A program made the position numbers. A stretch of 64,000 nt of DNA from Escherichia coli (GTDB lineage: Bacteria; Pseudomonadota; Gammaproteobacteria; Enterobacterales; Enterobacteriaceae), in NCBI RefSeq assembly GCF_048403405.1, contig NZ_CP183129.1; one strand, given 5' to 3'. This document shows positions 39,401 through 42,400 of this stretch, one piece after another; within the stretch, counting starts at the first letter, position 1; each line of letters begins with the position of its first letter.

Positions 39401-42400
39401 AAGAAGTCGATAATACCGCCATTGCTGGGATAGCTCGCCCCTAGGCGCGCATAGGCATAACCGGAAAACATCGCCACAATACCGCCAAAAGCAAAGGCGA
39501 CCCAGGTCGAGGCTTCCATTAGCAACGCAGCCTGCCCCAGCAGCGCGAAGATCCCCGCCCCCACCATTGCCCCAATACCGATGGAAACGACGTTCCATAG
39601 ACCGAGGGGTTTGTTATCGTTATTACCTTCCGTGTTCATCATGATCAGCCCTTAAACACGTTATAGCCGAGTTGCTTAGCGACCGATGCCACCATTTTTT
39701 GACCGCGAACACTGTTACCTTCTTCGTCCAGCGGTGGTGAGAACGCGGCAATTCCCATCACGCCAGGGACGACCGCCAGAATACCGCCACCTACACCGCT
39801 TTTGCCCGGTAAACCAACGCGATACGCCCAGTCACCGGAGCGACCATACAGCCCTTCCATCATCATTTCAGCCAGAATGTACGGCACGTTGTCGGCCTGA
39901 AGAACGCGTTTATGCGTCAGCGGATTCACACCCCCCGCCGCCAGCGTCGCGCCAAGCGTTGCCAGTTCAACAGTATTGATGAGCGTGGAGCACTGACGGG
40001 TGTACACGTCACAGGCTTCCATTGCATCACAATAGAGATATCCGGCGGAGTACAGCAGCCAGGCAATGGCCCGGTTATGGAAGTTGGTTGTTTGTTCCGA
40101 CTGGTTTACTTCGTCAGAGAGCGCTACCTGCTCACCAGCCAGTTGTTGTTGGATATGTAAAATTCGCTGCCAGCGTTGTTCGGCATTTTCAGCGTTAATC
40201 AGGCTGGTGGTGGCAATAGCGCCAGCATTTACCAGTGGCGACAGCGGTTTACCGCCATGCAACTCTAAGGCGATAACTGAGTTAAAGGGCAATCCGGTCG
40301 GGTCAGCGCCAATTTTGTCCTGTACCGCCTGCGGGCCGACATCTTCTAACGCAAGGGCTAACGTACAGACTTTCGAGATGGATTCCAGCGCAAAGCGGTA
40401 ATCACTATCACCCGCGCGATAGATGTTGCCATCGCAGGTCACAATAGCCACTGCTGCCAGTTGACCAGGTACATTCGCCAGAAAGGGAATGTAGTCGGCA
40501 TTTTGTCCGCCGTTAAGTGAGTGAAATTGGGTGTAAGCCTGATCCACTGCCTGCTGTAATTTGTTTGCATCTAACATCTTTTGTTAACTCCTTTTTATAG
40601 ATGCGGGAGGTAATTCCTCACCCCGGTGCCGATTTTCAGGCATCCTGATTTAACTTAGCACCCGCAACTTAACTACAGGAAAACAAAGAGATAAATGTCT
40701 AATCCTGATGCAAATCGAGCCGATTTTTTAATCTTTACGGACTTTTACCCGCCTGGTTTATTAATTTCTTGACCTTCCCCTTGCTGGAAGGTTTAACCTT
40801 TATCACAGCCAGTCAAAACTGTCTTAAAAGGAGTGTTTTATGTCACAAACTATCGACCTGACCCTGGACGGCCTGTCCTGCGGTCACTGCGTTAAACGCG
40901 TGAAAGAAAGTCTCGAACAGCGCCCGGATGTTGAGCAGGCGGATGTGTCTGTCACTGAAGCGCACGTTACCGGGACTGCCAGTGCAGAACAGCTGATCGA
41001 AACCATCAAACAAGCGGGTTATGACGCATCTGTAAGCCACCCAAAGGCTAAACCGCTGGCGGAGTCATCAATCCCGTCGGAAGCACTGACAGCGGTTTCT
41101 GAGGCGCTTCCGGCAGCGACCGCCGATGACGATGACAGCCAGCAGTTGCTGCTGAGCGGCATGAGCTGCGCCAGCTGTGTCACCCGCGTACAAAATGCGC
41201 TGCAAAGCGTACCGGGCGTCACTCAGGCACGGGTAAACCTGGCGGAGCGTACTGCGCTGGTGATGGGCAGTGCCTCCCCACAAGATTTAGTGCAGGCGGT
41301 GGAAAAAGCGGGCTACGGCGCGGAAGCGATTGAAGATGACGCTAAACGCCGCGAGCGCCAGCAAGAAACCGCCGTCGCTACGATGAAGCGCTTCCGCTGG
41401 CAGGCGATTGTCGCACTGGCGGTGGGTATCCCGGTGATGGTCTGGGGGATGATCGGCGATAACATGATGGTCACCGCCGACAACCGCAGCCTGTGGTTGG
41501 TTATCGGCCTGATAACCCTGGCGGTAATGGTTTTCGCCGGCGGGCATTTTTACCGCAGTGCATGGAAAAGCCTGCTGAACGGCGCGGCGACAATGGATAC
41601 GCTGGTGGCGCTGGGTACGGGCGTGGCGTGGCTCTATTCGATGAGCGTCAACCTGTGGCCGCAGTGGTTCCCGATGGAAGCGCGACATCTTTATTACGAA
41701 GCCAGCGCGATGATTATCGGTCTGATCAATCTCGGCCATATGCTGGAAGCGCGCGCGCGTCAGCGTTCTTCTAAGGCGCTGGAGAAATTACTCGATTTAA
41801 CCCCACCGACGGCGCGCCTGGTCACTGACGAAGGTGAAAAAAACGTGCCGCTGGCAGATGTTCAGCCAGGTATGTTACTGCGCCTGACGACCGGCGACCG
41901 TGTGCCGGTAGATGGTGAGATTACTCAAGGCGAAGCGTGGCTGGATGAAGCGATGCTGACGGGCGAACCTATCCCGCAGCAAAAAGGCGAAGGCGATAGC
42001 GTCCATGCCGGGACAGTGGTACAGGACGGCAGTGTGCTGTTTCGTGCCAGTGCGGTCGGCAGCCATACTACGCTGTCACGGATCATTCGCATGGTGCGAC
42101 AGGCCCAGAGCAGCAAGCCAGAAATCGGTCAACTGGCGGATAAAATCTCCGCCGTGTTTGTGCCGGTAGTGGTAGTCATTGCGCTGATCAGTGCGGCAAT
42201 CTGGTATTTCTTTGGTCCGGCACCGCAGATTGTCTATACCCTGGTGATTGCCACCACGGTGCTGATTATCGCCTGTCCGTGTGCGCTAGGACTGGCGACG
42301 CCGATGTCGATTATTTCGGGCGTCGGGCGGGCGGCTGAGTTTGGTGTGCTGGTGCGGGACGCCGACGCGCTGCAACGCGCCAGTACGCTCGACACCGTGG

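Follow-up and report, generated by a model that had tools for sequence, protein, structure and literature searches.

Whether the heptamer CCCAAAG near the start of copA is a working signal for programmed -1 ribosomal frameshifting, or simply a run of codons that happens to spell one, is the question raised by this locus, which lies in a window of 64,000 nt of Escherichia coli DNA, the whole stretch analysed here. The gene itself is readily assigned. Its reading frame matches annotated E. coli copA at 100% identity, its full-length product scores 1749.9 bits against the NCBIfam equivalog NF007952 (cut-off 1316) with the Pfam content E1-E2_ATPase, Hydrolase and two copies of HMA, and the order glsA-ybaT / copA / ybaP-ybaK is a synteny that fits the E. 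coli copA orthologue. Direct reading of the region upstream gave a putative promoter of the MerR/CueR type with the dyad CCTTCC-N7-GGAAGG in its spacer, which is presumably controlled by CueR, as is established for PcopA. A sigma-70 scan restricted to spacers of 16-18 bp reported no promoter at copA, because the 19-bp spacer of a CueR promoter falls outside that range. The -1 frameshift in E. coli copA was reportedly established by Meydan et al. 2017 (Mol Cell 65:207) and, it is said, likewise by Drees et al. 2017 (Mol Microbiol 106:635). Coordinates of the features discussed below are collected in Table 1.

Table 1. Features of the copA locus and its recoding cassette, numbered from the first base of the window.
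Feature	Position	Strand	Details
Putative copA promoter, MerR/CueR type	40769-40799	+	TTGACC 40769-40774, 19-bp spacer, TAACCT 40794-40799
copA ORF	40840-43344	+	834 codons; product a Cu(I)-exporting P1B-type ATPase with two N-terminal HMA domains
CopA(Z) coding region	40840-41051	+	join(40840..41046, 41046..41051); codons 1-69 in frame 0, then the -1 frame
Zone of low synonymous substitution	41032-41118	+	codons 65-93; heptamer, spacer and pseudoknot
Slippery heptamer C_CCA_AAG	41040-41046	+	P-site CCA to CCC, A-site AAG to AAA
Heptamer-to-stem 1 spacer	41047-41052	+	6 nt; same length in 59/59 aligned sequences (best 80 of 477 relatives)
-1-frame stop TAA	41049-41051	+	2 nt past the heptamer; shifted reading CCC AAA GGC TAA
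Stem 1, 5′ arm	41053-41062	+	CCGCUG g CGG; partner 41086-41095
Stem 2, 5′ arm	41076-41084	+	GUCGGAAGC; partner 41106-41114
Stem 1, 3′ arm	41086-41095	+	CUG a CAGCGG; within stem 2 loop
Stem 2, 3′ arm	41106-41114	+	GCUUCCGGC

The initial annotation had placed a conserved slippery heptamer at 41040-41046 in copA and numbered it as codons 68-70. The position stands, but the numbering was slightly off, because codon 67 (CAC, His) contributes only its third base, 41040; the remaining six bases are codon 68 (CCA, Pro; 41041-41043) and codon 69 (AAG, Lys; 41044-41046), which puts the heptamer in the canonical X_XXY_YYZ register. At codon 70 the frames part: frame 0 has Ala (GCU), frame -1 has Gly (GGC). 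As a check that same annotation had called for a nearby stop codon in the -1 frame and a pseudoknot-forming sequence downstream, and both are present: the TAA follows within 2 nt of the heptamer, and a structure backed by covariation begins 6 nt past it. Conservation was assessed among the best 80 of 477 relatives, with 61 Enterobacterales copA loci and 17 non-Enterobacterales ones. C_CCA_AAR in register, the 6-nt spacer and the -1 stop occur together in 61/61 of the former and in 0/17 of the latter, more distant, loci, and this bears out the conservation claimed for the heptamer. In all 61 Enterobacterales loci (best 80 of 477 relatives) the stop is TAA or TGA at the identical offset. The zero-frame residue at position 70 varies (A, S, T, P, F, C) over a codon with an invariant final T, and the first two bases of codon 71 are RA throughout; since the residue changes while these bases stay, the -1 stop is kept independently of the protein sequence.

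It could be argued that the heptamer is an incidental one, with protein constraint or codon bias preserving the His-Pro-Lys codons and the linker that follows, and with no programmed recoding at all. The motif is, after all, no commoner than chance (4 copies of bare CCCAAAG in the 64-kb window against 7.75 expected from shuffles), stem 1 of the downstream structure is built of CCG and CUG, the preferred Pro and Leu codons of E. coli, and the linker peptide has segments (P-L-x-E, E-A-L-T-A, L-P-A) that show protein-level conservation within Enterobacteriaceae. Such preferences do not account for a Pro68 that is always CCA and never the preferred CCG, for a preceding base that is always C, or for a -1 stop retained in 61/61 loci (best 80 of 477 relatives) despite the variable residue 70, whereas the other in-frame heptamer of copA drifts freely. 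Two further lines of evidence, compensatory changes that link arms about 30-40 nt apart and a collapse of synonymous diversity, are set out below; together with published experiments (PMC9548414, PMC5009743) they leave the incidental explanation with next to no probability.

The base pairs of the downstream element were derived independently here from 59 Enterobacterales copA sequences (from the best 80 of 477 relatives). They describe two interleaved stems, one of 9 bp plus one mismatch and one of 9 bp, and the topology is that of an H-type pseudoknot because the 3′ arm of stem 1 lies inside the loop of stem 2. The six core pairs of stem 1, together with 41060-41088 (C-G in 59/59), are paired in 100% of sequences, and the extension pairs 41061-41087 and 41062-41086 in 93% and 80%, respectively, the mismatch of the stem being usually purine-purine. 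Compensatory changes in stem 1 run from C-G to U-A in five sequences and from U-A to C-G in one. In stem 2, 89.1% of cells are paired and changes on both sides occur at 7/9 pairs, the distal pairs being broken in 17-37% of sequences. Taken as a whole, 93.9% of pair cells in the 59 sequences are standard-paired, as against 17-51% when the partners are slid, and length differences among the copA sequences fall mainly in loops L1 and L3. Double changes are found at nine pairs distributed over both stems, and the observed covariation score was reached in 0/500 shuffles. The cells behind that score are not independent; the five U-A cells of stem 1, for example, are all confined to Pantoea-group loci and probably trace back to a single event. 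Scored separately, the helices have energies of -10.6 kcal/mol (stem 1) and -13.0 kcal/mol (stem 2), and stem 2 is the main helix of both the nested MFE and the centroid fold (ViennaRNA). The nested MFE of 41040-41135 did not improve on shuffles (z = -0.65, ViennaRNA, with the pseudoknot itself outside the scoring), and single-sequence nested folding was on that account discarded as a test of structure and covariation used in its place. Rfam, searched at gathering and permissive thresholds, gave no family that fits the copA element; the top scores, 10-15 bits, were at the level of chance.

The constraint on this region is visible in its nucleotides as well as in its pairs. Across codons 65-93 the pairwise synonymous difference drops to 0.06-0.10; the mean for the gene, 0.44 (sd 0.09), is about 4 sd higher, and all 15 of the lowest synonymous windows in a scan of 670 codons fall within those codons. 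Of 5422 E. coli genomes, 5342 carry an identical 85-nt stretch at 41035-41119, in contrast to the copA copies that contain it, which are at 95-99% identity to the window in 5402/5422. A covariance model from which Escherichia had been left out, built on 50 sequences from other genera, had a single match in the 64-kb window, at 41040-41139 (85.3 bits, E about 1e-20; next 13.4 bits). It is the combination that exceeds chance: a heptamer in register, a -1 stop that follows at once, a spacer fixed at 6 nt, a pseudoknot with covariation, and synonymous change held down. A second candidate recoding site in the gene, A_AAA_AAC at 41838-41844 (codon 334), was rejected: it is unconserved among relatives and its -1 stop is 26 codons off.

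A structure conserved in its own right might also serve another purpose, such as a pause for the folding or membrane targeting of CopA or the stability or processing of its mRNA, with frameshifting a minor by-product. Pausing elements between domains are plausible, and the title of Drees 2017, as it is cited in PMC9548414 and PMC7558416, adds ‘differential transcript formation’. A pause, however, would require neither a heptamer in register 6 nt ahead of the structure nor a -1-frame stop 2 nt after that heptamer, and heptamer and stop are both invariant in 61/61 loci (best 80 of 477 relatives), with the stop so positioned that it yields a clean HMA domain. Frameshifting at copA has in addition been called efficient and its product functional (PMC5009743, PMC6771820). 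We consider this alternative very improbable, if slightly less so than the incidental heptamer. Programmed -1 frameshifting is the reading that the conserved arrangement favours, and the cassette in this E. coli copA is, on the comparative evidence, almost certainly a signal of that kind.

The product predicted from the shifted frame agrees with this. After the slip G41046 is re-read within GGC, which supplies a Gly70 encoded in the -1 frame only (the zero frame has Ala70), and TAA follows, for a total of 70 residues. They make up one complete HMA domain (PF00403, 52.1 bits against a cut-off of 24.8, residues 8-62, spanning profile positions 3-62 of 62) with its CxxC at C14/C17, so that the expectation of a product of about 70 aa corresponding to the first metal-binding domain of CopA is upheld. 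The nearest small-protein models are CopZ chaperones, yet CopA(Z) stays under their curated NCBIfam cut-offs (NF047957, 60.4 against 85; NF033794, 39.4 against 95; NF033795, 38.1 against 91). CopA(Z) would be functionally CopZ-like but is CopA's own first metal-binding domain and lies outside the CopZ equivalogs. An origin of the short protein mostly in a truncated transcript, transcriptional slippage or proteolysis of CopA would dispense with ribosomal slippage, and differential transcripts are named in the title of Drees 2017 as cited in PMC9548414. The sequence offers such routes little: the longest homopolymers are AAA and CCC, too short for slippage by RNA polymerase, and on the + strand a terminator scan found nothing resembling an intrinsic terminator from 41040 to 41500. 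Neither a truncated transcript nor proteolysis would favour keeping the -1 stop and the register of the heptamer, and ribosome density falls after the -1 stop (PMC9548414). We regard a source mainly other than ribosomal slippage as extremely improbable.

Programmed frameshifting at this site would proceed as follows. A ribosome on C_CCA_AAG would hold tRNA-Pro at CCA in the P site and tRNA-Lys at AAG in the A site, with the pseudoknot, 6 nt downstream, placed at the mRNA entrance. From the general mechanism of -1 frameshifting and the literature we infer that the pseudoknot resists unwinding during translocation and that some ribosomes slip back one base, both tRNAs re-pairing on CCC and AAA. 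Because GGC UAA would come next after the -1 slip, termination would be immediate, releasing the 70-residue first HMA/CxxC domain as CopA(Z), on literature evidence a soluble Cu(I) chaperone, while ribosomes that do not slip would make the 834-residue pump. A single mRNA, presumably under CueR control, would thus yield both chaperone and pump, in a ratio set by the RNA signal. These steps accord with published work in which efficient -1 frameshifting in E. coli copA, with a 70-aa product alongside the 834-aa pump, emerged from ribosome profiling (PMC5009743), Drees 2017 is regarded as an independent confirmation (PMC9548414), single-molecule assays show that ribosomes stall at the copA pseudoknot and that it brings about -1 frameshifting (PMC6182138), and CopA(Z) is described as a copper chaperone (PMC6771820, PMC6747150). 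The frameshift elements are given as the slippery sequence, the pseudoknot and the nascent chain (PMC7558416), the nascent CopA peptide being stimulatory (PMC7558416; bioRxiv 10.1101/469692). In the sequences compared here, only Pro-Lys is invariant across the order directly upstream of the frame split, and nearby residues vary outside Enterobacteriaceae; a general nascent-chain stimulator does not appear obviously conserved.

In E. coli, copA, dnaX and prfB are described as the only well-characterised programmed frameshifts that are chromosomal and non-mobile (PMC10861913). The dnaX (gamma/tau) element, Rfam RF00382, is also found in the window, at 58328-58392 on the minus strand. Like copA, dnaX has an AAG Lys codon in the A site and a chromosomal, non-mobile -1 frameshift, and near-immediate termination in the -1 frame gives a shorter product from the same mRNA. 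Its signals are A_AAA_AAG with a Shine-Dalgarno-like stimulator about 10 nt 5′ of the heptamer and a stem-loop on the 3′ side, in contrast to the C_CCA_AAG and H-type pseudoknot of copA. The 24 nt upstream of the copA heptamer (GGGUUAUGACGCAUCUGUAAGCCA) contain no AGGAGG-like run and are freely variable between genera, and Rfam, which has a family for the dnaX element, has none that matches the copA element. In its architecture the copA cassette resembles the -1 frameshift signals of viruses and IS elements, such as coronavirus 1a/1b, which combine an X_XXY_YYZ heptamer, a spacer of 5-9 nt and an H-type pseudoknot, and the copA pseudoknot resembles viral ones in single-molecule translocation assays (PMC6182138). 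The outcome differs, as viral and IS frameshifts extend a protein into a long new ORF, whereas the copA shift ends after one codon and frees an N-terminal domain. With stand-alone CopZ/Atx1-like copper chaperones, such as the CopZ of Bacillus subtilis and Enterococcus hirae, CopA(Z) shares an HMA fold of roughly 70 residues and a CxxC, and its proposed role is the hand-over of Cu(I) to the P1B-ATPase (PMC7558416, PMC6747150). Unlike a stand-alone CopZ it has no separate gene and is cut from the N-terminus of the pump by recoding. For human ATP7B, the copA orthologue, an analogous -1 frameshift was proposed in the same paper as that of copA; it is a reporter artefact, with neither site nor structure conserved (PMC9548414). 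The copA site, on the contrary, shows strong synonymous and structural conservation.

The cassette with its heptamer at 41040-41046 is the already described copA -1 frameshift site and not a new one, and the result for this window is confirmatory. Compared with E. coli K-12 MG1655, gene bases 113-400, which include the entire cassette, show no differences, and the two-piece CDS of K-12 (NC_000913.3, YP_009518752.1, ‘soluble Cu(+) chaperone’) corresponds through its 212 nt to window positions 40840-41051. Gene, site and two-piece CDS are thus the same; elsewhere the two copA genes differ at 80/2505 nt and 7 residues, with V38I inside CopA(Z). The PGAP record of a genome 100% identical to this one annotates the nearby dnaX element and, for copA, the full-length pump only; CopA(Z) is missed there because the pump alone is listed and no Rfam family matches the element. 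The covariation-backed pseudoknot model and the covariance model presented here could be used to annotate it across Enterobacterales.

In copA genes with three HMA domains, found in Yersinia, Serratia, Pectobacterium, Brenneria, Dickeya, Photorhabdus, Xenorhabdus, Hafnia, Edwardsiella and Budvicia, among others, the cassette is placed after the second domain. A duplicate cassette after the first domain of such genes was ruled out, as there is one match per gene. The evidence leaves us evenly poised on whether the cassette is an Enterobacterales-wide module whose frameshifting, in the three-HMA lineages, would set free a soluble protein of 139-141 residues with two HMA domains in tandem. A literature search, with the original copA frameshift paper outside its scope, found no description of a two-HMA frameshift product, and the prediction of a two-domain chaperone from three-HMA copA may be new. 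For the strain studied here, the frameshift signal is intact, and it should therefore make CopA(Z). To our knowledge E. coli has no copZ gene, and frameshifting in copA explains how such an organism is supplied with a cytosolic copper chaperone.

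The slippery heptamer CCCAAAG, proposed in the initial annotation as the CopA(Z) frameshift site, does lie in copA, within an 834-codon open reading frame on the + strand that matches copA from several complete E. coli genomes with 100% identity. The reading frame is found in 5422 of 5426 complete E. coli genomes and sits between glsA-ybaT and ybaP-ybaK; its product scored 1749.9 bits against equivalog NF007952 (cut-off 1316) and has the E1-E2 ATPase, HAD and two HMA domains expected for CopA. Counting codons from the ATG at 40840 places the heptamer in the canonical X_XXY_YYZ register, C_CCA_AAG (see table), so the placement at codons 68-70 was right in substance, with numbering one base and one codon off. 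The -1 frame reads CCC AAA GGC TAA, adding Gly70 before a stop that begins 2 nt past the heptamer, the nearby stop for which a check had been proposed. The predicted product, MSQ...SVSHPKG, has 70 residues and spans an entire HMA domain (52.1 bits to PF00403, covering profile positions 3-62 of 62), its CxxC motif falling at C14 and C17, in agreement with the ~70-aa first metal-binding domain originally claimed. It is like CopZ chaperones yet falls below the curated cut-offs of the NCBIfam CopZ models; it is the first metal-binding domain of the pump itself.

The RefSeq annotation of K-12 MG1655 contains a second copA CDS of 212 nt in two joined pieces, 'soluble Cu(+) chaperone' YP_009518752.1, which maps exactly to window 40840-41051. 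By concordance with RefSeq and the literature, we take CCCAAAG to be the published copA slippery sequence; the independently derived pseudoknot pairs may likewise be the published ones. We are highly confident that the site is already known: it matches the characterised copA/CopA(Z) recoding site exactly. Ribosome profiling flagged copA, with efficient -1 frameshifting giving a 70-aa putative chaperone versus the 834-aa pump (PMC5009743); the frameshift is well supported by profiling, density falling past the -1 stop (PMC9548414), and Drees et al. 2017, as cited in PMC9548414, confirmed it independently. The copA pseudoknot induces ribosome stalling and -1 frameshifting in single-molecule assays (PMC6182138), CopA(Z) guards cells against excess copper (PMC6771820, PMC6747150), and a list of the well-characterised E. 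coli chromosomal frameshifts names copA beside dnaX and prfB (PMC10861913).

The bare heptamer is not enriched, with 4 copies in 64 kb versus 7.75 expected; the non-random element is the ensemble of features. We fetched 79 loci encoding relatives of the CopA N-terminus, one genome per species, drawing on the best 80 of 477 relatives. Among these and the E. coli locus, C_CCA_AAG or C_CCA_AAA is in register in all 61 Enterobacterales loci (E. coli included), and TAA or TGA begins exactly 2 nt past the heptamer in the same 61, which cover Escherichia, Citrobacter, Enterobacter, Klebsiella, Pantoea, Erwinia, Serratia, Yersinia, Pectobacterium, Dickeya, Photorhabdus, Xenorhabdus, Hafnia, Edwardsiella, Budvicia and others; the 17 copA loci that are more distant (L064-L080) all lack the combination of heptamer and stop. 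Zero-frame residue 70 varies among the Enterobacterales loci (Ala, Ser, Thr, Pro, Phe, Cys), while codon 70 invariably ends in T and the following codon invariably starts with RA, so the -1 stop is maintained independently of the protein. A second in-register slippery heptamer in copA, A_AAA_AAC at codons 333-335, served as an internal negative control: its -1 stop lies 26 codons downstream, and it varies freely among related genera and is not conserved in 28 Enterobacteriaceae, so that it is probably incidental.

Aligning 59 distinct Enterobacterales sequences on the heptamer revealed four conserved blocks, CCGCUGnCAG, CCGGAAG, CUGnCAGCGG and CUUCCGG, in an otherwise variable inter-domain linker. 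Blocks 1 and 3 are complementary, as are blocks 2 and 4, and the four together specify an H-type pseudoknot; the downstream pseudoknot-forming sequence for which the initial annotation had proposed a search is thus present as two interleaved covarying helices. The spacer between heptamer and stem 1 is 6 nt in 59 of 59 sequences, and most differences in length fall in L1 (6-34 nt) and L3 (8-10 nt). Standard pairs fill 93.9% of cells, versus 17-51% with the 3′ partners slid by 1-3 columns, and 0 of 500 column shuffles matched the observed covariation score. The seven counted pairs of stem 1 are 100% paired, one changing from C-G to U-A in 5 sequences and another from U-A to C-G in 1; covariation cells are not independent events, as all five U-A cells belong to Pantoea-group loci. 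The third pair of the stem 1 extension, C41060-G41088, is the seventh of these, and the other two, counted separately, form in 93% and 80% of sequences. Stem 2 is 89.1% paired, with both sides changed in 7 of 9 pairs (for example AAG/CUU to AAC/GUU in Photorhabdus and Rahnella and to AAU/AUU in Yersinia thracica; AGUC/GACU in Xenorhabdus), and its distal pairs are broken in 17-37% of sequences. Helix energies, calculated for each helix alone, are -10.6 (S1) and -13.0 (S2) kcal/mol. Nested MFE folding yields S2 but does no better than shuffles (z = -0.65), so single-sequence folding is uninformative at this site.

Coordinates of the features (window positions unless stated otherwise)
Feature	Position	Strand	Detail
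copA ORF	40840-43344	+	834 codons
Slippery heptamer	41040-41046	+	CCCAAAG
Codon 67, third base	41040	+	CAC; counted from ATG at 40840
Codon 68	41041-41043	+	CCA, Pro; counted from ATG at 40840
Codon 69	41044-41046	+	AAG, Lys; counted from ATG at 40840
-1 stop	41049-41051	+	TAA
S1	41053-41062 with 41086-41095	+	6 bp, one usually purine-purine mismatch, 3 bp
L1	41063-41075	+	loop
S2	41076-41084 with 41106-41114	+	9 bp, one being U-G
L2	41085	+	loop
L3	41096-41105	+	loop
Second heptamer	41838-41844	+	A_AAA_AAC
Putative copA promoter, MerR/CueR type	40769-40799	+	TTGACC, 19-bp spacer with CCTTCC-N7-GGAAGG inverted repeat, TAACCT
Cassette in three-HMA loci	about 1899-2034; L044 670-772; L051 1640-1742		locus positions
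dnaX frameshifting element	58328-58392	-	Rfam RF00382, 96.8 bits; AAAAAAG at 58367-58373
SiiEA gene	about 1-36548	-	BapA-related adhesin
TolC-family gene	36657-38012	-	outer-membrane protein
copA-ybaP intergenic	43345-43772		428 bp, no annotated gene
sroB (ChiX) sRNA	44566-44649	-	Rfam gathering-level match; downstream of ybaP
naRNA4 (REP-type) element	9469-9546	+	Rfam gathering-level match
naRNA4 (REP-type) element	50328-50405	-	Rfam gathering-level match

Across 28 Enterobacteriaceae copA genes aligned by codon (670 codons; 15-codon windows), mean pairwise synonymous difference is 0.44 (sd 0.09) and drops to 0.06-0.10 over codons 65-93, which contain all 15 lowest windows; this interval, 41032-41118, coincides with heptamer, spacer and pseudoknot. 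Of 5422 E. coli genomes, 5342 carry the 85 nt at 41035-41119 unchanged, even though 5402 of their 5422 copA copies are 95-99% identical to the window, and none of the 80 differences from K-12 copA (2505 positions) lies in gene bases 113-400. We give almost no credence to coding constraint or codon bias alone as the explanation, since it is contradicted by the synonymous-site minimum, the invariance of a non-preferred CCA codon, the retention of the -1 stop despite variation at residue 70, and compensatory changes in the stems. That the structure is a pause or stability element and frameshifting only its by-product is very improbable, if slightly less so, and would leave the invariant register, spacer and stop unexplained. 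Production of the short protein from a truncated transcript, by RNA-polymerase slippage or by proteolysis is likewise exceedingly unlikely: there is no long homopolymer run, a scan found no + strand terminator past the site (41040-41500), and none of these processes would select for a -1 stop.

A covariance model of the cassette (R1), built on 50 sequences from other genera with no Escherichia included, gave a single match in the 64-kb window, 41040-41139 (85.3 bits, E about 1e-20; runner-up 13.4 bits), recovered the cassette in held-out Enterobacterales loci and had no match in 17 distant copA loci. These results place the site in a conserved cassette but, resting on orthologous coding DNA, do not independently prove an RNA function; the evidence for that is the pseudoknot covariation and the synonymous-site selection. 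In Erwinia persicina CFBP8797 (L037:1501-1812) the cassette is present (70.6 bits with R1), with ACGCTG as the stem 1 5′ arm and a zero-frame TAA at codon 81, inside L1; copA appears split or inactivated just past the frameshift site in that assembly.

At least 15 copA loci (L035, L040, L042-L046, L049-L051, L053, L054, L059-L061), from Serratia, Brenneria, Pectobacterium, Dickeya, Photorhabdus, Xenorhabdus, Yersinia, Hafnia, Edwardsiella and Budvicia, have three HMA domains, the extra one N-terminal (tblastn). They carry one cassette each, behind the second domain at codon 137-139, and their frameshift product is predicted to have 139-141 residues and two CxxC motifs, not 70 residues. The literature examined made no mention of a two-domain CopA product, which the original copA paper may cover.

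The window also contains dnaX, so that both chromosomal -1 frameshifting genes of E. coli lie ~17 kb apart; in the PGAP annotation of the 100%-identical record the dnaX element is a sequence_feature and nothing is annotated for copA recoding. The dnaX heptamer is A_AAA_AAG, stimulated by an upstream SD-like element and a stem-loop, whereas copA has C_CCA_AAG and a pseudoknot; the sequence 5′ of the copA heptamer shows no SD-like element. A single giant SiiEA gene, which the 100%-identical record lists as a frameshifted pseudogene, takes up over half of the window, and a TolC-family gene lies between it and ybaT, which in K-12 presumably adjoins cueR. The K-12 copA-ybaP interval is 794 bp and contains ybaQ (342 bp); ybaQ therefore seems missing or degraded here.

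The copA cassette works like viral H-type-pseudoknot cassettes but terminates rather than extends the protein. With the heptamer in register, a 6-nt spacer, interleaved covarying helices, an immediate -1 stop and a one-HMA-domain product in place, we infer the following steps from the general -1 frameshifting mechanism and the cited literature. Positioned at the mRNA entrance, the pseudoknot would impede translocation with tRNA-Pro on CCA and tRNA-Lys on AAG, and both tRNAs would re-pair one base back, onto CCC and AAA. The shifted ribosome would read GGC, stop at UAA and free CopA(Z), a putative chaperone. The putative promoter, which we take to be a CueR target, is missed by a consensus scan because only 16-18 bp spacers are allowed. 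One mRNA from this promoter would be the source of both products, non-shifting ribosomes producing the pump.
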